Positions 54,882 through 64,000 of a stretch of DNA of 64,000 nucleotides are shown piece by piece. Source of the DNA: a bacterium. Lineage in GTDB: Bacteria; Zhuqueibacterota; Zhuqueibacteria; Residuimicrobiales; Krinioviventaceae. The stretch's first letter is position 1. Each line of letters opens with the position of its first letter. The stretch is taken from assembly GCA_963693055.1 (NCBI GenBank), contig OY843751.1, positions 2,112,001 through 2,176,000 of the forward strand, given 5' to 3'. The position numbers and the translations under genes are program-made. The notes under the pieces were generated by a model, which saw only the letters and a list, made by a program, of their open reading frames with translations, made no database searches and had not been told where the DNA came from.

Positions 54882-55280
54882 ACCGAATCCCAAATCGACC
54901 AATTCGCCATCGAGCATCTGAAGCACCAGGTGGAAAATCTTGTAATCAATATTATAAAGGTTTAGCATGGATGATTTAACAAATGACCAGTCTCGTTTTT
55001 TATTTTATACAAATCAAGATGGAACAATTAATATAGATGTTGTTATACAGAATGAATCCGTTTGGCTTACTCAACAAACCATAGCTACATTGTTCGGAGT
55101 TGGAAGACCAGCTATTACAAAATATTTGAAAAATATAATTGATTCGGGTGAACTGCAACAGGATTCAGTATGTTCCATTTTGGAACCTACTGAAATTTGT
55201 GATAATAATGATCGATTGACCGAGCAAAAAGATGAAACATAAAATCACCGAATCCCAAATCGAACAATTCGCCATCGAGC
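54882..55280 (+). repeat. 34-bp direct repeat of the hsdR 5' end
   Basis: ACCGAATCCCAAATCGA(C/A)CAATTCGCCATCGAGC at 54882-54915 and 55247-55280. Confidence 0.9.
54967..55242 (+). pseudogene. Truncated RhuM-like DNA-binding protein
   Basis: ESVWLTQQTIATLFGVGRPAITKYLKNI..SGEL..DSVCSILE, then diverges. Confidence 0.75.
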
Positions 55281-58200
55281 TGCTGGAAAAACAGGGCTTT
55301 GAATATATCTATGCGCCTGATATTGCCCCGGACAGTGACGCACCGGAACGACAATCCTTTGAAGAGGTGCTGCTGCTGGACCGTCTGCGCAATGCTGTCA
55401 ACCGCATCAATCCATTCATTCCCTCAGATGTTAGGGAAGACGCCATCAAACAGATCCAGCGTCTGGTTTCACCTGAACTCATTGCCAATAATGAAACCTT
55501 TCACCGTATGCTTACAGAAGGCATAAAGGTCACGTATCAAAAAGACCTGCCTGCGTCCGCAGGACAGGCAGGGGGGCGCGAACAACGCGGTGACCTGGTC
55601 TGGCTCATTGATTTCCACAATCCGGATAACAATGATTTTGTGGTGGCCAACCAGTTTACCGTTATCGAGAACAATGTCAATAAACGTCCTGATGTGATCT
55701 TGTTTGTTAACGGCATTCCCCTGGTGGTGATCGAGCTCAAGAACGCGGCTGATGAAAACGCCAATGTCAAATCGGCATTTAAACAGATGCAAACCTACAA
55801 GCAGGAAATTCCCAGCTTGTTTACCTATAACGGATTCATGATCATCTCTGACGGTTTGGAGGCCAGGGCCGGTACCATCTCGGCCGGATTCGCCCGCTTT
55901 ATGGCCTGGAAAACATCGGACGGCAAGGTAGAGGCTTCGCCGCTCATCGGCCAGTTGGAAACCCTCATCAAAGGCATGCTGCAAAAAGAGACCCTGCTCG
56001 ACCTGGTCCGTCATTTCATCGTGTTTGAAAAATCCAAAAAAGAGGACCGCAAAACCGGTGTCATCACCATCGAGACTTTGAAAAAGCTGGCAGCCTATCA
56101 TCAATACTATGCGGTGAACCGGGCAGTGGAATCCACGTTGAGAGCATCGGCATATCTTGAACCAAATACTGATAGTAACAAGGTTAAGGAATCTCCGGCT
56201 TCTTATGGCGTGCCCGGTGTGGATGCTCAACCTGTAGGAGACCGCAAGGGAGGCGTGGTCTGGCATACTCAGGGCAGCGGCAAGTCCTTGTCCATGGTAT
56301 TCTATACCGGCAAAGTTGTGCTGGCTATGGAGAATCCCACCGTGGTTGTTATCACGGACAGAAACGACCTGGATGATCAATTATACGATACCTTTGCCGC
56401 CTCCAAGCAGCTCCTCAGGCAGGAGCCGGTGCAGGCGAAAACGAGGGACCATTTAAAAGACCTGCTCACAGTTGCATCCGGTGGCGTGGTCTTTACCACC
56501 ATCCAGAAATTTTCTCCTAATGAAGGCAATGTATACGAGACCTTGTCCCACCGTGGGAATATTGTGGTCATTGCGGATGAAGCGCACCGCACCCAGTATG
56601 GCTTTCATGCCAAGACCATTGATGCCAAAGACGAGAGCGGCAAGGTGGTTGGTAAAAAGATCGTTTATGGGTTTGCCAAGTATATGCGTGATGCTTTGCC
56701 CAACGCAACCTATCTGGGATTCACCGGTACTCCCATTGAAAGCACGGATGTGAATACCCCTGCGGTTTTCGGCAACTATATCGATGTGTATGACATCCTG
56801 CAGGCGGTTGAGGACAAGGCAACCGTTCCTATTTACTATGAGAGCCGACTCGCTAAAATCAACCTGAGTGAAGAAGGCAAAAAGCTGATAGATGAGCTGG
56901 ATAAAGAACTGAAAGAGGATGACCTCACCGACAGTCAGCAGGCCAAAGCCAAATGGACACAGCTTGAAGCGCTCATTGGCAGCCATGATCGCATTAAACG
57001 GGTTGCTCAGGATGTTGTTGCCCATATTGAAGAACGCCAAAAAGTGTTTGCGGGCAAGGCCATGATCGTTGCAATGTCCCGCAGGATTGCTGCGGAACTG
57101 TACAAAGAGATTATAGCAATCAGACCCGAGTGGCATGATGATGATTTGAAAAAAGGAATGATCAAGGTGGTCATGACTTCCTCATCTGCTGACGGTCCCG
57201 AGATCGCCAGACACTATACATCCAAAGAACAGAGACGTTATTTGTCAGACCGTATGAAAGATGTCGATGATGAACTGAAACTGGTGATCGTCCGGGATAT
57301 GTGGCTCACCGGATTTGATGTGCCCTGTATGCATACCCTGTACATCGACAAACCCATGAAGGGCCACAACCTGATGCAGGCCATTGCACGGGTGAACCGC
57401 GTTTATCATGATAAAAAAGGCGGTCTCATAGTGGATTACCTTGGCATTGCATCAGACCTCAAAAAAGCATTGTCCTTTTACTCGGACAGCGGTGGCAAGG
57501 GTGATCCAGTTATTGCGCAGGAAGAAGCCGTACAGATAATGTTGGAAAAGCTGGAAATCGTTACCCAAATGTATCATGGATTTGCCTATGAAGATTATTT
57601 TGAAGCAGATACCGGCAAAAAGCTCTCCATGATCCTTGCTTCAGAAAACCACATCTTGGGCCTGGAGGATGGCAGGAAGCGATACATCAATGAAGTCACT
57701 GGGTTGTCCCAAGCTTTTTCTATTGCTGTGCCTCATGAACAGGCAATGGATGTTAAGGATGAGGTATCTTTTTTTCAGGCAGTCAAAGCCAGGCTGGTGA
57801 AATATGAAAGTACCGGCAACGGCAAAACCGATGAAGAAGTAGAGACCGTCATCCGGCAGGTAATCGACCAGGCGCTGGTGAGCGAACAGGTCATTGATGT
57901 GTTTGATGCTGCCGGAATCAAGAAACCGGACATCTCGATCCTGTCGGAAGAGTTTCTGCTCGAAGTCAAAAATATGAAACACAAGAACATTGCCATTGAA
58001 GTACTGAAAAAACTGCTCAATGACGAAATCAAATCCCGTATGAAAACGAACCTGGTCCAGAGCAAATCGCTCATGGAAATGCTGGAAAGCTCGATCCAGA
58101 AATATCATAACAAGATCCTGACTGCTGCAGAGTTTATGGAGCATCTCATCGAGTTGGGCAAGCATATCCAAAATGCCGACAAAGAGCCGGAAGAAATGGG

Positions 58201-58486
58201 ACTCTCTGAATTTGAATACGCTTTTTACACTGCAATCGCCAATAACGACAGTGCGCGTGAACTGATGCAAAAGGACAAGCTCCGCGAGCTGGCAGTGGTT
58301 CTGTTTGAAAAAGTAAAAGCCAACGCCTCCATCGACTGGACCATCAAAGAGAGTGTAAAATCCAGGCTCAAGGTTATTGTCAAGCGCACGCTCCGGCAGT
58401 ACGGTTATCCACCGGACATGCAAAAACTCGCCACCGAAACCGTACTCAAACAAGCCGAGATGATAGCGGAGGAGTTGGTGGGGTAA
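55232..58486 (+). CDS. hsdR: Type I restriction endonuclease subunit R
   Basis: RPDVILFVNGIPLVVIELK, WHTQGSGKS, DEAHR, FTGTP, TGFDVP, QAIARVNR. Confidence 0.97.
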   Translation: MKHKITESQIEQFAIELLEKQGFEYIYAPDIAPDSDAPERQSFEEVLLLDRLRNAVNRINPFIPSDVREDAIKQIQRLVSPELIANNETFHRMLTEGIKVTYQKDLPASAGQAGGREQRGDLVWLIDFHNPDNNDFVVANQFTVIENNVNKRPDVILFVNGIPLVVIELKNAADENANVKSAFKQMQTYKQEIPSLFTYNGFMIISDGLEARAGTISAGFARFMAWKTSDGKVEASPLIGQLETLIKGMLQKETLLDLVRHFIVFEKSKKEDRKTGVITIETLKKLAAYHQYYAVNRAVESTLRASAYLEPNTDSNKVKESPASYGVPGVDAQPVGDRKGGVVWHTQGSGKSLSMVFYTGKVVLAMENPTVVVITDRNDLDDQLYDTFAASKQLLRQEPVQAKTRDHLKDLLTVASGGVVFTTIQKFSPNEGNVYETLSHRGNIVVIADEAHRTQYGFHAKTIDAKDESGKVVGKKIVYGFAKYMRDALPNATYLGFTGTPIESTDVNTPAVFGNYIDVYDILQAVEDKATVPIYYESRLAKINLSEEGKKLIDELDKELKEDDLTDSQQAKAKWTQLEALIGSHDRIKRVAQDVVAHIEERQKVFAGKAMIVAMSRRIAAELYKEIIAIRPEWHDDDLKKGMIKVVMTSSSADGPEIARHYTSKEQRRYLSDRMKDVDDELKLVIVRDMWLTGFDVPCMHTLYIDKPMKGHNLMQAIARVNRVYHDKKGGLIVDYLGIASDLKKALSFYSDSGGKGDPVIAQEEAVQIMLEKLEIVTQMYHGFAYEDYFEADTGKKLSMILASENHILGLEDGRKRYINEVTGLSQAFSIAVPHEQAMDVKDEVSFFQAVKARLVKYESTGNGKTDEEVETVIRQVIDQALVSEQVIDVFDAAGIKKPDISILSEEFLLEVKNMKHKNIAIEVLKKLLNDEIKSRMKTNLVQSKSLMEMLESSIQKYHNKILTAAEFMEHLIELGKHIQNADKEPEEMGLSEFEYAFYTAIANNDSARELMQKDKLRELAVVLFEKVKANASIDWTIKESVKSRLKVIVKRTLRQYGYPPDMQKLATETVLKQAEMIAEELVG
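55546..55572. repeat. 27-bp palindromic in-frame insertion in hsdR
   Basis: CCTGCCTG-CGTCCGCAGGA-CAGGCAGG encoding LPASAGQAG. Confidence 0.75.
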
Positions 58487-58573
58487 TAATCAGAAAATGA
58501 ATTTATATCAATATAATATAGAATAGAGTATTAAAGAAAGGTGTCATAAATATAAATGAAAATGGAGGTATAA

Positions 58574-59722
58574 ATGATTTCGAAAATTTTTAAAAAAGTT
58601 TTTAAATTTATTTTTCCTGATGATGCTCCTACTGAAAAAATTCCATTACTTTATTATCATATCTTTAAATTATATAGATTTTTTAAAAGTATAATTATTG
58701 TATCATTGATTCCGAAATCAATAGAGATTATTGTTTCTTATTTATCCCCTGCTTGGTCGTGCAATTTGGATAAAAAAGATACCGATAAGATTCTAAACAA
58801 ATCATTTTATATTGTGAGTTTTTTAGTTTTTATCTTGACACTTGTTGTTCAAGGTCTTTGGTCTTTTGGGGAAGGCACATTTAGAGGATCAAATAATGAT
58901 ATATTTTATTTTTGGGATGACAAATTAAATATTTTAAATTATTTTTTTATTGTTCCATTATATATGGCATTGGGTATCCGTTTGGTTTCATTAACAATAG
59001 ACGGGTTTGGTTTTATTACGAATTTTTTTAATAGAGATGAATTATCAGATAAAAAAATGACTAAACCAAAAGGCTCAATTATATATTTATTTTTTTTTAT
59101 AATTGTACTCTCTATCGCAATAACTATTAATTACATGCATGAAATATTAGACACATCATTATATTTACAACATTTTTGGTGTATCACAAAAATATCATCA
59201 TCAGGAGAAAGAATATTTTCGGGTTTGGGGATTTACTATACTTTATTAACCTATAATCTACTCTTAGTAAGCTTGTTTGTTGTAATATCTTATCTCTCAA
59301 TATTTTTAATTACAATAAATTATGGCAGTAAAATTAAAAATGAAAAAATATTAGACACGATTTCTTTATCTGAATTTAAGGGAAGATTGTCTTATTTTGT
59401 TAATATCAATTTAGTAGCAAAAGCAATTGCAGCAATTTATATGTTGAATGCATTAACTTGGAAATATCAATCAACATTAGCAAATAAAGATACTTTAAAT
59501 TTACAGTTGTTTGTAATAGCGTTAGCTTTTTTAGGATTATTTGTTATTTCAATCCCTCGATACTATATTGAACTTGAAATATATAGTTATCAGGTTTCAA
59601 AAGTAGGAGAGCCCAATAATGTAGTTTATAATGATTTACGACCACGTAATGTTAAGATTATTACTAATGTATTAGATTGGACAATAATTGCAATTTTCAC
59701 TAAAGTATTCTTTTCAATATGA
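58574..59722 (+). CDS. AT-rich multi-pass membrane protein
   Basis: Several hydrophobic helices; RBS GGAGG. Confidence 0.65.
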   Translation: MISKIFKKVFKFIFPDDAPTEKIPLLYYHIFKLYRFFKSIIIVSLIPKSIEIIVSYLSPAWSCNLDKKDTDKILNKSFYIVSFLVFILTLVVQGLWSFGEGTFRGSNNDIFYFWDDKLNILNYFFIVPLYMALGIRLVSLTIDGFGFITNFFNRDELSDKKMTKPKGSIIYLFFFIIVLSIAITINYMHEILDTSLYLQHFWCITKISSSGERIFSGLGIYYTLLTYNLLLVSLFVVISYLSIFLITINYGSKIKNEKILDTISLSEFKGRLSYFVNINLVAKAIAAIYMLNALTWKYQSTLANKDTLNLQLFVIALAFLGLFVISIPRYYIELEIYSYQVSKVGEPNNVVYNDLRPRNVKIITNVLDWTIIAIFTKVFFSI

Positions 59723-60588
59723 TTAAAAAAACAAATTATAAATTATTCATTATTTTCCTATTATTCATTTCTTGTTCTCATTCGATTAAACAATTAACAA
59801 AACCCACTTTATCAGAGTTGCAAACTCCTGGTAGAGTTTTGTTAGTTGTAGCACATCAGGATGATGAAGTTTTTATTGCTTCCAGATTAAAATCCCATAT
59901 TGATCTGGGTGATACTTTGATGATTGTTTGGACTGCAATTTCAACTCAAAAAAATTTAGAATATGCTAATAGAAGAATTGATGAATCATTGTTAGGAGCA
60001 AAAACATTTTTAGACTTGTCAGATTCATCTTTAATATTCTTAAAATATGAGGATGGAAAAACATTTGAAAATATTGATGAAATATATGTTAAGATAAAAA
60101 GTGTAATAGAAAAATTTCATCCAAATATAATATATGTACCAGCTTATGAACTTGGTCATGTTGATCATGATGTTGCACACATAAGTACGGTTTTAGCACA
60201 TAATAAATTAAACTACAATTCTAAAATCTATGAATTCCCAATGTATAGTGCATATCATCTTTCAAGAATTTTTCCATTTAAAATGAGAAATTCCCCTCCT
60301 GATTATCATACAAGGTATAGAATTTTACTGGACTCAGAAAAAAAGTTTGTATTGGATTATTGGAATGTGTTCGATAGTCAACATTTTCCATTAGACTGGT
60401 ATATAAGATTTATTAGTAGTAGGAATAAAACTTTTGGAGTAGAGTATATTCGTAAAGTACCTGATTATGATTATTCAAAAAAACCTCCCGAATATGATAA
60501 TATTGCTTATGAAAGATTTTTGAATAATGTTAAATATCAAGATTTTTCAATACAGGTTGAAAAGTTGTTGAGTATTATTGGAAATTAG
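59719..60588 (+). CDS. PIG-L/LmbE-family deacetylase lipoprotein
   Basis: VAHQDDE and GHVDHD motifs; lipobox FISC. Confidence 0.85.
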   Translation: MIKKTNYKLFIIFLLFISCSHSIKQLTKPTLSELQTPGRVLLVVAHQDDEVFIASRLKSHIDLGDTLMIVWTAISTQKNLEYANRRIDESLLGAKTFLDLSDSSLIFLKYEDGKTFENIDEIYVKIKSVIEKFHPNIIYVPAYELGHVDHDVAHISTVLAHNKLNYNSKIYEFPMYSAYHLSRIFPFKMRNSPPDYHTRYRILLDSEKKFVLDYWNVFDSQHFPLDWYIRFISSRNKTFGVEYIRKVPDYDYSKKPPEYDNIAYERFLNNVKYQDFSIQVEKLLSIIGN

Positions 60589-60605
60589 TTTAAAGGTGAT
60601 AAACA

Positions 60606-62033
60606 ATGAAACTCAAAATTATTTGTTTTACTTACTGTCTATTTATCTCAATTAATAGTACAAGTTTTTCACAAGATTATTATGCAAATGGTCAGATTTT
60701 TAATGAATTGGATATCGCTCTTGATAGTTTATACATAAACAATGGTTACACTGGGATTTCTACTGCATTTTTATTACCTGATGGTCGTATTTGGACACGA
60801 GCAATAGGATATTCAAATATATCAACTTTAGAGAATCTTGATACATTGATGCTTCTCAGTGGTGCGAGTATTACAAAGACTTTTACTTCTTCTTTAATAC
60901 TCGAGTTATTAAATGAAAATTTTTTGAATTTAAGCGATTCTTTATATCAATGGTTACCTAGTTATAAAAATATTGATACTACTATTACAATTAAACAATT
61001 ATTAAATCATACAAGCGGAATATATGACTATTCTGAAAATGTACTTGGAAAAATATCAATTTTTTTAGATCCAGAAAAAATTTGGAAGCCAGAAGAAATA
61101 TTAGGATTCGTTGAAGAACCGTATTTTGATCCAGGTACTGATTGGAAATACTCTAATACTAATTATATATTATTAGGTATGATAGCAGAAAAAATAATTG
61201 ATAACTCGACAGTGTCAAATGAATTAAGACAAAGATTCTTTAATAAATATAATTTAAATCATACATTTTTTGAAATTAAAGAGGAAATACCGGATTCATT
61301 AAAAATTGCACATGGTTATATCGATGTTAATAATGATGGGATAAAGGATGATATTGAATTCTTTTCAAGAAATGCTATTTATAGTGCGGCTTGGGCAGCT
61401 GGTGCAATAGTTTCTACTCCAAAAGATTTAGTTAATTGGGCCAATTATTTATTTAATGGCAATGTGATAAATCAAAATTTACTAGATAAAATGATTGATT
61501 TTGAACCTGTTGATTTGCCTGAATCTTCACACATTATTGGTTATGGACTTGGGCTAATGCAATACAACATAAATAATTACGAATTTTGGGGGCACAGTGG
61601 AAATATACCTGGTTTTACTAGTGAATTGGTATATTCACCCGAGTTGGAAATTATTTTATGTGTATTGATTAATGAAAATGATGCAAATATAAATTATATA
61701 ACAAAGACTCTTGTTTCTACATTTACTAGTTTCAATACATCAATAAATAGATACGAAAGTAAAAATATTTCTAATTTTGAAATGTTAAATACCTATCCAA
61801 ATCCATTCAATCCTTTAACACATATTGTTTTTAAAAATTCAATCATGTCAAATGTAGCAATATCTATTTATAATCTAAAGGGACAACTTGTAGAAATTGT
61901 TTATGATCAGCAAACACCAGTAGGAACTCACAACGTGTTGTGGAATGCAAGCGAACAACCATCGGGTACCTATTTTATTAAGATGATTGCAGGTGAATTT
62001 CAGCAAATCCAAAAATGTATATTGATAAAATAA
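60606..62033 (+). CDS. Serine hydrolase (class C beta-lactamase/D,D-peptidase fold) with T9SS-type/FlgD-like C-terminal domain
   Basis: SITK (SxxK), LLNHTSG, YSN, GHSG; C-terminal YPNPFNP...IYNLKGQ...SGTYFI. Confidence 0.88.
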   Translation: MKLKIICFTYCLFISINSTSFSQDYYANGQIFNELDIALDSLYINNGYTGISTAFLLPDGRIWTRAIGYSNISTLENLDTLMLLSGASITKTFTSSLILELLNENFLNLSDSLYQWLPSYKNIDTTITIKQLLNHTSGIYDYSENVLGKISIFLDPEKIWKPEEILGFVEEPYFDPGTDWKYSNTNYILLGMIAEKIIDNSTVSNELRQRFFNKYNLNHTFFEIKEEIPDSLKIAHGYIDVNNDGIKDDIEFFSRNAIYSAAWAAGAIVSTPKDLVNWANYLFNGNVINQNLLDKMIDFEPVDLPESSHIIGYGLGLMQYNINNYEFWGHSGNIPGFTSELVYSPELEIILCVLINENDANINYITKTLVSTFTSFNTSINRYESKNISNFEMLNTYPNPFNPLTHIVFKNSIMSNVAISIYNLKGQLVEIVYDQQTPVGTHNVLWNASEQPSGTYFIKMIAGEFQQIQKCILIK

Positions 62034-62053
62034 GGAAAATTTTCCGGTAGGTT

Positions 62054-62082
62054 TTGGAAAAAAGGCGGTTATTTCATATAGT
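62054..62082 (+). promoter_or_regulatory. Candidate internal promoter of the element
   Basis: TTGGAA-N17-TATAGT. Confidence 0.45.
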
Positions 62083-62138
62083 ATTTAAAGGAAGTAACCG
62101 GAAGTCAAACAAGGATTTCAAAACTTACCGGAGGACAA

Positions 62139-62939
62139 ATGTACAATACTCGTAGTAGTTTGTATGACAGGATATTAGAAAAAACACCCGAGCAAGTATT
62201 CATCAATTCTTTACGAAAGGAATTTGAATTATCACCGGCAGAAAGTAAAGGGATATTGGATCTGGCAAAACAGTGTTTATTTGGCGAGGTTCCCCAGACA
62301 GTTGGTAAAATAAAATATATCTGCGCATCCACAAATGCAAAACATGGCAAGCCCCTGGGTGAGCAGGAATTGAAAGAAGTAGAGTTAACACTGGATGCTG
62401 GTGTAGAAGATTTAAATGTATTAAAGGAAAGCGGTCCCAAAGCATTACGGCAGCTAAAGGTATTGCGATTGACTGAAGAAGCCTGGGGCCAGGAAGGTTC
62501 TTTGACACAAGAGGATTTGGCCTGGATCCTCCAGGTTACGAGTCGCACTGTACGCCAGGATATAAAGGCATTGCAGGCAGACGGCAATTTTGTTCACACA
62601 CGCGGAACAGACCATGACATCGGTCGGAACTTGTCACACAAAAGCCGCATTATTGAACTGTATTTGCAGGGTGACACATACGATGCAATTATTCGTAAAA
62701 GTCGTCATAGTGCATTTTCAATAAAGCGATATGTGTGCAGCTTTGGCAGGCTATTACTTTTATTGAATCATGGTATGCAAGATATCAAGGAGATCAGTCG
62801 GTTATTAGGCCAAAGTGAGCGTTTGACCCGTGAATATCTGGATATTTTTGAGCATCATAAACAGGGTGACAAATGGCCGTCGATCTATGTAGAGTTATTG
62901 GACCAATTAAAGGTGTTATACCCCTCGAAAAAAAAATAA
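62139..62939 (+). CDS. DUF1670-like protein A
   Basis: LTEEAWGQEGSLTQEDLAWIL...TRGTDHDIG..SHK..I..LY..G...HS..SIKRY; RBS GGAGG. Confidence 0.8.
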   Translation: MYNTRSSLYDRILEKTPEQVFINSLRKEFELSPAESKGILDLAKQCLFGEVPQTVGKIKYICASTNAKHGKPLGEQELKEVELTLDAGVEDLNVLKESGPKALRQLKVLRLTEEAWGQEGSLTQEDLAWILQVTSRTVRQDIKALQADGNFVHTRGTDHDIGRNLSHKSRIIELYLQGDTYDAIIRKSRHSAFSIKRYVCSFGRLLLLLNHGMQDIKEISRLLGQSERLTREYLDIFEHHKQGDKWPSIYVELLDQLKVLYPSKKK

Positions 62940-62955
62940 ACCAAGGAGGGGAACG

Positions 62956-63771
62956 ATGAAGACTAAGCCTTTAAATCGTTATGAATCAATAGCTAAGCGT
63001 AGCTTTCAAAATGCTATTATTCGCTTACTGGAAGAAAATTATAAAATGTTAGGAAGCCATAAAGTCATCCGAATAATCGCAGAAGATATTGTCGCATTGC
63101 AAAATGAATTTTATCCGGAGCTGGAAAAGAAAAGTTTTGGTCAGATTATCTGGCGAACGACCAAAGCGACAAATCGAAAACCAAGCTATGGCACAAAAGC
63201 GGAAGATTATGAAGTTCAGACAGTTGTACTGCCATTGGTTACAGATGAAGACATTGACAATCGAATCAAGAGTCATTATTCTTATCGAGACAAAGATGGC
63301 AGAGCTGATTATGAGAAGCAGGTTGATCGGGATATTAAGGTAATGGCGCGGTTGTGCAAGAGTGCGGCGGAACAGGGTGGTTGGTTGACAGGCGCAGAAC
63401 TCAGTGTACTGTTAAATCGTTCATTAAACGCTATTGGTCGGTATATGACAATTTACCATGAAACACATGATGATATATTACCGACCAAAGGAATGATGCT
63501 GGATCAGGGCAGTAAGCCGACACATAAAGCCGCAATTATAGATTTATACGAGCAGGGCTATCCCGAACCGGATATCGCCCGGATCACAAATCACACAATT
63601 GAATCGACGAGTCGTTATCTCAAGACTTACAAGAACGTAAAGTTATTATTGGAAAAAGGTTTTAATTTAATGGAAATGGTAAGGATAACCGGATTAGGAA
63701 AAAAGACAATAACACAATATCGTGATCTGGTTTATCTTTATCATTCAGATTTAAAACAAAAGAAAACTTGA
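62956..63771 (+). CDS. DUF1670-like protein B (paralog of A)
   Basis: AAEQGGWLTGAELSVLL...PTKG..DQG..THK..I..LY..G...HT..STSRY; RBS AGGAGG. Confidence 0.8.
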   Translation: MKTKPLNRYESIAKRSFQNAIIRLLEENYKMLGSHKVIRIIAEDIVALQNEFYPELEKKSFGQIIWRTTKATNRKPSYGTKAEDYEVQTVVLPLVTDEDIDNRIKSHYSYRDKDGRADYEKQVDRDIKVMARLCKSAAEQGGWLTGAELSVLLNRSLNAIGRYMTIYHETHDDILPTKGMMLDQGSKPTHKAAIIDLYEQGYPEPDIARITNHTIESTSRYLKTYKNVKLLLEKGFNLMEMVRITGLGKKTITQYRDLVYLYHSDLKQKKT

Positions 63772-63808
63772 AAATTTGAAAAGGAATTTATAGGTTAGGT
63801 TGTCACAA

Positions 63809-63857
63809 TTTTTAGCTAACTCCAGTCGCCCTACGGGCTCCTTCCGTTAGCTAAAAA
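63809..63857. repeat. Hairpin motif, copy 2 (inside DUF1670 element right end)
   Basis: Stem TTTTTAGCTAAC/GTTAGCTAAAAA around TCCAGTCGCCCTACGGGCTCCTTCC. Confidence 0.85.
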
Positions 63858-63965
63858 AATGATTCAATCTTCTAATCTTAAAAAACAACCTACCGGAAAT
63901 ATTTCCTAAACGTAAATAGTGTTGTAACAATTAACAACTTTTAAAAAGGATAACGCTTTCATATA

Positions 63966-64000
63966 AATCAATAACTTCCCACCGTGGAAAGTTATTGATT
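63966..64000. terminator. Hairpin, possibly the displaced terminator of the serine hydrolase gene
   Basis: AATCAATAACTT...AAGTTATTGATT at the window edge. Confidence 0.5.

Follow-up and report, generated by a model that had tools for sequence, protein, structure and literature searches.

Serine-recombinase elements, such as IS607 and those of the large serine integrases, cross over at a 2-bp core at which a match is normally required. Insertion of Tn7 at attTn7 goes through TnsD, which recognises a conserved stretch at the 3′ end of a host gene's coding region, and it leaves the protein unharmed. Among insertion sequences (IS), IS1111 has subterminal repeats of 11–13 bp, extensions of 7 and 3 bp, a circular form and a specific target, according to the part of the published account used here (PMC11187229), and part of another account describes a 2-nt core in bridge recombination by IS621 (PMC11208160). 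In the portion of a third account on which we draw, SE elements and Tn554 have paralogous recombination genes, RHRY recombinases, carry-over of junction bases and a 6-bp footprint (PMC10214605). Here we describe a 1.9-kb element that shares several of these properties. It lies in a stretch of 64,000 nt, called the window below, from a bacterium of the Krinioviventaceae (assembly GCA_963693055.1, contig OY843751.1, positions 2,112,001 to 2,176,000 of the forward strand), and its two genes encode proteins of the family DUF1670 (Pfam PF07900). An earlier reading of the window by its letters alone (the sequence-only reading) had proposed a mobile element with two paralogous DUF1670 open reading frames (ORFs) and no recognisable transposase. 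We propose that the DUF1670 pair may be the element's own site-specific recombinase, acting at a 2-nt core through a protein-DNA link, a reading to which we give a probability of roughly 0.55.

Copies and ends of the element

The source genome (G000) is a single contig of 6.5 Mb, in which the element is present as seven full copies with common ends at seven sites; the window copy occupies window positions 62030–63913. It differs from the other six at 136–140 positions; those six differ mutually by 0–5 nt, and three of them are identical. Between the window copy and a sister copy, the ratio of synonymous to other codon changes was 29:10 in orfA and 46:16 in orfB. For the copy at genome position 987155, the orthologous gene of a second genome of the same genus (G085) lacks the element and has a single copy of the 2-nt core described below. 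We concluded that the 1.9-kb element is real and mobile; the extra copies and the empty site of the sister copy thus bear out the mobility that had been proposed, although the unit present once at the empty site is this core and not TAA, as had been supposed. Family labels (F1, F2, F3 and F4) were assigned in this analysis, and the window element belongs to F1. F2, a second family of DUF1670 pairs in the same genome, has six copies and ~32% protein identity to F1, and the seven F1 and six F2 copies explain all 26 PF07900 matches in that genome.

The sequence-only reading had described 20-bp inverted repeats with 2 mismatches as the ends of a 1873-bp segment (62034–63906) with TAA on both sides. 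The repeats are present as described, and only 1 of 300 Markov controls of the region contained a 20-bp inverted repeat with ≤2 mismatches. In 7/7 copies, ATAA preceded the left repeat and 7 nt followed the right repeat, and the next two bases matched the dinucleotide in front of the left ATAA. As the extensions were fixed and the flanking dinucleotides equal, the bounds had to be moved outward: the element spans 62030–63913 (1884 bp) plus one 2-nt core, and its repeats are subterminal by 4 and 7 nt. We also took 105 loci from other genomes and metagenomes, in which the left 4 nt were ATAA in 82 of 86 left ends. The 7-nt right extension was fixed within each element lineage, and the 4 nt beyond the right dinucleotide varied as host stops do, with 8 kinds in 75 right ends. 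The element sits between bases 2 and 3 of the host's last codon and supplies base 3 and the stop. TAA was rejected as a target duplication because the element supplies the left ATAA, and the right TAA is the beginning of a 7-nt extension that none of the seven copies varies; the left TAA does serve as the stop of the upstream hydrolase, as had been noted. The downstream hairpin at 63966 was likewise found, with a corrected distance: it had been placed ~56 nt after the stop, and the host's own stop is the TAG at 63917–63919, ~46 nt before the hairpin.

No full tandem end-to-end junction of elements was seen in the loci or the genome, in which there were partial look-alikes only. One locus (L098, 1845–1900) had the right junction repeated in tandem over 30 nt, resembling a miniature end-only remnant. 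Sequence searches gave no match in plasmids, phages or IMG/VR.

Insertion at the last codon of secretion-tail genes

The gene upstream of the window copy encodes a serine hydrolase (PF00144) that ends in a Por_Secre_tail domain (PF18962), a sorting tail of the type IX secretion system (T9SS) type. In the source genome, a T9SS-type-tail gene ends right at the insertion in 7/7 F1 copies and 4/6 F2 copies. Of the other two F2 copies, one follows immediately after an F1 copy inserted next to such a gene and the other is off-target, so that 12 of the 13 copies are at tail ends. As background, 237 of the 9777 ORFs of ≥100 aa in this genome have a T9SS-type tail end, and plain Lys-stop-like hexamers number 34,668. 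Outside it, we surveyed the targets of 101 loci, 16 without a left end and 31 with <150 nt of flank. The tail profile was matched in frame at the junction by 52 of 53 unique long flanks, and the sole miss still had the same final tail motif; among 1000 random ORF ends used as a control, 32 matched.

A 28-nt target matrix made from the targets outside the source genome carried 21 bits and mirrored the tail codon pattern, with T at −14, −11, −8 and −5. At 14 bits it found 275 sites in the source genome, 149 of them tail ends, a yield to be read with the partial circularity of a matrix built from tail-gene targets. Given this yield, reading of the DNA by proteins can account for most target choice, and selection against other sites likely adds a filter. 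The sequence-only reading had suggested targeting of TAA that spares host ORFs; the host ORFs are indeed intact, and the target is the last codon of T9SS-type-tail genes. By reading a coding pattern common to hundreds of gene ends and rebuilding the last codon, the element would have many safe sites in each genome.

Of the 67 unique right flanks of F1, 7 carried an F2-type end after the F1 element; elements can stack at one site because only the upstream side seems to be read and this side survives insertion. One such stack of an F1 and an F2 copy is at 506800–512600 of the source genome (L024). At 1345500–1351200 (L023), two tail genes converge on a common hairpin, and an F1 copy and an F2 copy are inserted at their ends. 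Solo F1 ends were found at tail genes at 1730449 and 333441 (G000:C1, both on the + strand): one is a left end with the remainder gone, and the other is a right end next to a deletion that removed the element together with the tail's final portion. An F2 copy at a non-tail site (L020, ~6088450) scored −16 bits on the target matrix, its AA cores still matching.

The 2-nt core

Junction pairs were counted after duplicates had been collapsed by junction sequence, leaving aside loci missing an end. The core was equal on both sides in 69/69 unique F1 junction pairs from the 105 loci (64 AA, 4 CG and 1 AG). One element present at two sites (L083 and L084) had CG at both, a second right end in the genome of another CG element (L043) was likewise CG, and every AA cluster with several members was AA throughout. 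The last codons at the 237 tail ends of the source genome provide 162 AA and 34 CG. If last codons were hit at these frequencies, chance would produce the two repeats of CG with a probability of ~0.02, and AA in 12 insertions (11 sites) with one of ~0.01; in these estimates related insertions count as independent events, and the CG lineages number two. By comparison of these junctions the core follows the element lineage, which points to an exchange of strands at a common core more than to a filled-in duplication. Core matching is not absolute, judging from the other families: the two sides were equal at 15 of 21 loci and unequal at 6, 4 of them at the first base only.

Related elements

A common layout was seen in 20 loci of ~7 families: a 12-bp near-palindrome, preceded by the core and 4 nt, stands before the genes, and after them comes another near-palindrome, followed by 7 nt (8 nt in most F2) and the core. 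Other DUF1670 pairs thus keep inverted-repeat ends, as the sequence-only reading led one to expect. The near-palindromes differ between families, the proteins of different families are only ~20–40% alike, and from family to family the genes may point either way with respect to the 4/7 asymmetry. Tail ends are the target of most families. F3 (L044, L047, L050, L051 and L157) inserts in short hairpins resembling repetitive extragenic palindromes (REP), with the core CT (AG in reverse), and has almost no non-coding DNA past the second gene.

PF07900 was present in 33/167 genomes of this phylum, in 12/401 and 14/86 genomes of two other phyla, and in the Methanosarcina acetivorans control. A DUF1670 profile search returned 3125 clusters (at 50% identity) at E ≤ 0.001, at least 532 of them at E ≤ 1e-30, and the family spans bacteria and archaea. 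In a tree of the proteins, first and second genes formed separate groups across families, with support of 0.78 for B and 0.32 for A.

The DUF1670 proteins

Both ORFs of the window element matched DUF1670 (orfA, E = 1.5e-46 and 159 bits; orfB, E = 2e-47 and 162 bits; cut-off, 25 bits) and they are paralogous, with 29% identity over 135 aa, in agreement with the earlier description of two DUF1670 paralogs. All other domain matches of the two ORFs in Pfam, NCBIfam and PHROGs scans were to helix-turn-helix (HTH) families. Pfam recognised no transposase or recombinase family in either ORF, as the sequence-only reading had stated, nor in 141 relatives among the top 25 of the 32 families matched. A single additional A in a poly-A run makes the window orfA 9 aa shorter than its six sister copies (275 aa); the extra A may be real or a slip of assembly.

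AlphaFold2 models of the A and B proteins had a mean predicted local distance difference test score of 88 and gave a predicted architecture of a small N-terminal alpha/beta part followed by three HTH units, which matched one another with profile probabilities of 72–95%. The best structural matches of model A were winged-helix regulators over residues 99–162 (Z 6.4, root-mean-square deviation (rmsd) 1.8, 56 residues aligned); Topoisomerase VI A (Z 5.7, rmsd 2.5, 61 residues) was level with ordinary winged helices. At E ≤ 0.001, Foldseek searches of PDB with both models, and of BFVD with model A, found no match. VIA-align against 48,161 chains gave no match of Z ≥ 8 for model A, and no recombinase catalytic domain among the 50 matches listed. 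A PDB sequence search at E < 0.001 found only a designed HTH repeat, and the ESM Atlas returned DUF1670 clusters, with nothing at 0.9 once these were excluded. These structure searches were dominated by HTH matches and barely tested residues 1–95, so that they do not show a new fold.

Residue conservation was examined in 141 proteins of types A and B, with a mean column identity of 24%. His167, His190 and Lys/Arg168 were kept in all 141, Tyr198 (never replaced by Phe) and Arg110 in 140, Arg155 in 132 and Asp160 in 129. Fusions made up 23 of the best 150 matches, 19 of them two-unit and 4 of about four units. Such single polypeptides, many with a degenerate first unit, include P0121–P0124 and P0271 (930–952 aa) and P0125, P0126, P0133 and 16 more (502–572 aa). 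In 20 fusions, His167, His190 and Tyr198 were jointly lost from the first unit, and all three were kept in 20/20 second units. Such joint loss is the pattern expected of a catalytic site in an oligomer, and is not proof of one. A search for longer fusions found a single 945-aa protein consisting entirely of DUF1670 among 7994 candidates, which is weak evidence.

Proposed mechanism and alternatives

From this conservation, the purifying selection on the two genes and the lack of an IS110 helper in the source genome, we infer an enzyme role for the DUF1670 pair. We propose that an A-B heterodimer binds each 12-bp palindromic end and that joining of the ends yields a circle with 13 nt between the palindromes (7 nt, the 2-nt core and 4 nt). 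The proteins would recognise a loosely defined DNA motif to one side of the target, namely the coding pattern of the last seven codons of the tail, and strands would be swapped at the 2-nt core, normally requiring a match between element and target. The chemistry might proceed through a covalent phosphotyrosine at Tyr198 (Tyr221 in B), aided by Arg110, His167, Lys/Arg168 and His190; for this step by itself, suggested by the conserved residues, we put the chances slightly below even. Because the 4-nt extension restores the last codon and the stop, neither the host protein nor the target is lost, and more elements can be added at the same place. The fixed extensions and the lack of swapped patches fit both a 2-nt staggered exchange and a one-strand exchange resolved by replication.

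Several observations weigh against a DUF1670 recombinase acting in this way. The activity of the pair, the circle and the covalent intermediate are all inferred from sequence. No end-to-end joint of the element was found in the assembled contigs of 4 runs (2 samples), although contigs drop rare forms and absence is not shown. Nor was the site of the window copy found empty in another genome, and its host gene has no orthologue in G085. Profile comparison with 32 tyrosine recombinases was not significant (hhalign, probability ≤1.6%), and Tyr198 could be structural because Tyr233 holds the same HTH position in the next repeat (134/141). A lineage-specific preference of the proteins would mimic inheritance of the core, and the chance figures, with their assumption of independence and their two CG lineages, cannot separate the two. 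To these must be added the unequal cores of other families, the partial circularity of the target matrix, the weak support of the A clade and the possibility that some metagenome contigs are cross-copy chimeras (L078, L079 and L081 have common flanks).

A more conventional transposase would make a 2-nt staggered cut and fill it in to a 2-bp duplication, possibly with a metal at Asp160, His167 and His190. The equal dinucleotides in 69/69 pairs fit this equally well, and the conservation of Asp160 (129/141) and of both His (141/141) is what a metal site would need. We consider it improbable nonetheless: a duplicated dinucleotide should not follow the element lineage, and unequal sides, seen at six of the 21 loci of other families (in L036, for instance, the element side has AA, as is usual in its family, and the gene side CA), are impossible for a duplication without later mutation, for which there is room in that several of these loci are decayed. 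We hold it similarly improbable that DUF1670 only binds or bends DNA and that a host enzyme or one acting in trans (XerCD, a topoisomerase or another IS) cuts and joins. The exclusively HTH domain matches, the winged-helix regulators among the structural matches, and the seven tyrosine-recombinase matches and other multi-copy probable IS of the source genome would suit such an adaptor, in which invariant His, His, Tyr and Arg residues, and loss of the His/His/Tyr as a set, would be unusual. An enzyme supplied by the host would also have to be available across bacteria and archaea, whose host enzymes differ; moreover, the element ends are, by eye, unlike dif sites, and there was no PF02371 match in the source genome or G085. 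An IS110 helper in trans was rejected as a candidate, PF02371 being absent from G000, G085 and G524 and present in G126 and G168 (2 of 5 genomes).

It is very unlikely, in our judgement, that DUF1670 is a much reduced tyrosine-recombinase domain and the element a variant of those like Tn554, SE and RIT. The helices with His167, His190 and Tyr198 do follow the order Arg/His...His...Tyr at near spacing, one alignment agrees, and SE elements carry end-adjacent bases to the next site, in the part of the account cited (PMC10214605). That alignment, however, is not significant (probability 0.2%, E = 0.32), the His-Tyr spacing is 8 and not 9, a His stands where the second Arg belongs, the unit concerned is one of three internal HTH repeats, and PF00589 was not matched among the families listed. 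RNA-guided targeting, with DUF1670 as an unrelated protein partner of something like the bridge or seek RNAs of IS110 and IS1111, seems to us a shade less probable again. The end layout parallels that of IS1111 (PMC11187229) and the 2-nt core that of IS621 (PMC11208160), as far as the cited parts of those accounts go; the right end folds well (z −4.6) and one family inserts at REP-like hairpins. Unlike positions paired with a guide, however, the 7 nt before the core vary widely among the targets of one element, and no more than a few dozen bases are left of the right non-coding end in L008 and L044, with the hairpin missing in several relatives. The left AT-rich stretch able to pair with the target is unchanged, by eye, in the CG-core element L083, and with no change accompanying the CG core a guide in the left end was rejected. 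Rfam had no match inside four elements and two matches on the flanking host hairpin.

If the DUF1670 pair is the enzyme, two proteins of 270 aa would embody a new DNA-moving chemistry, and a function would be given to a family of at least 532 clusters missed by transposase-based annotation. With ends of 12 bp, a 2-nt core and targets specific to each family, such a small recombinase could become a tool for precise insertion.

Other features of the window

The coordinates of the element and its surroundings are collected in Table 1. In the F1 left end, conserved CGGAA boxes flank the promoter-like match, which suggests, from their position, that this end is autoregulated. The hairpin in the right non-coding end, which is likely dispensable because several relatives lack it, has a 26-nt identical match near a tyrosine-recombinase fragment at ~2227120 of the source genome and may be a passenger repeat. 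Upstream in the window is an ORF resembling the R subunit of a type I restriction system (55232–58486, by eye), followed by a block of low GC content (27%; window 55232–62033 with the restriction ORF) that holds an unassigned, membrane-like ORF of 382 aa, a PIG-L deacetylase and the target hydrolase. The source genome also has several further repeat families with long ORFs, of 3–18 copies each, which are probably IS.

Table 1. Positions of the element, its ends and the adjoining host sequences in the window
Feature	Position	Strand	Basis or remark
Host serine hydrolase with T9SS-type sorting tail	60606..62033	+	Pfam PF00144, PF18962; last base and stop supplied by the element
Left 2-nt core AA, bases 1-2 of the host's last codon	62028..62029	+	Flank and locus comparison
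4-nt left extension ATAA, restores codon base 3 and stop	62030..62033	+	82/86 left ends; G085 empty site
Left subterminal inverted repeat	62034..62053	+	First 12 bp (62034-62045) a perfect palindrome
Putative sigma-70-like promoter, 9/12 match	62054..62082	+	Consensus scan only; between conserved boxes
Internal CGGAA box, inverted relative to the left-repeat box, likely operator (predicted)	62094..62103	+	Invariant columns, 15 left ends
orfA, DUF1670 type A, 266 aa	62139..62939	+	Pfam
orfB, DUF1670 type B, 271 aa	62956..63771	+	Pfam
Hairpin in right non-coding end	63809..63857	.	Missing in several relatives, likely dispensable
Right subterminal inverted repeat	63887..63906	+	Last 12 bp (63895-63906) a perfect palindrome
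7-nt right extension	63907..63913	+	Fixed within each element lineage
Right 2-nt core AA	63914..63915	+	Flank and locus comparison
Displaced host remainder: base 3 of last codon and original TAG stop	63916..63919	+	Varies among copies like host stops
Host hairpin after displaced stop	63966..64000	.	Context

Comparison with described systems

Literature searches found no paper naming DUF1670, DUF 1670 or PF07900, and topic searches found no description of the family, within a scope that left most subscription papers and supplements outside. As far as these searches reach, the element is real and of an undescribed type. We consider it likely, from the sequence comparisons, that the DUF1670 pair has an enzyme role, and likely also that the three-HTH DUF1670 proteins are a new kind of DNA-moving enzyme. 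That they form a fifth mover beside the DDE, HUH, serine/tyrosine recombinase and DEDD enzymes, heterodimeric, nearly all HTH and with a His-His-Tyr site of its own, has in our estimate somewhat better than an even chance.

So far as the cited parts of the accounts of IS1111 and IS621 allow, the likeness to them lies in the ~12-bp subterminal repeats, the asymmetric extensions (7/3 there, 7/4 plus the core here), the 2-nt core at both junctions, the single fixed orientation at a specific target and, in one DUF1670 family, REP targets. In contrast to IS110 and IS1111, the element has two genes and not one, with no DEDD or IS110 Pfam domain in either ORF or among the families listed for the 141 relatives; the non-coding ends of DUF1670 elements are short and variable, with no long non-coding region common to all, and their targets vary base by base as codons do. 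With SE, GInt, RIT and Tn554 elements, again to the extent of the portion cited, the element shares several paralogous recombination genes in an operon, imperfect inverted repeats, target specificity and carried end-adjacent bases. It differs from them in the lack of a tyrosine-recombinase domain by Pfam or profile and in the shared bases, 2 nt and not a 6-bp footprint: the 7 nt by the right repeat are fixed in each lineage, and only 2 nt track the target.

No DDE transposase domain was found with Pfam, NCBIfam or PHROGs, and only one Asp is conserved near the invariant residues; the ends are also not those of a DDE insertion sequence, the repeats being subterminal by 4 and 7 nt and the 2-nt repeat following the lineage. 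For the HUH class (IS200/IS605, IS91), the H-U-H motif is lacking, as the two invariant His are 23 residues apart, and there was no Pfam match to a Y1 or Y2 transposase. The 2-nt matching core recalls the serine recombinases; in DUF1670, however, only a weak match to the resolvase HTH (PF02796) and no catalytic domain was found, the core lies closer to one repeat than to the other (7 and 4 nt), and the target is apparently read from one side. Like Tn7, the element reads a 3′ coding end and spares the host protein; unlike Tn7, it has ~237 gene ends per genome as its target, a crossover inside the last codon, and no TnsA/B/C/D. A match to a defined IS family, which would have spoken against the sequence-only reading, was not found on the features tested, a comparison made without ISfinder. 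On these features, the element is outside all of the classes with which we compared it.

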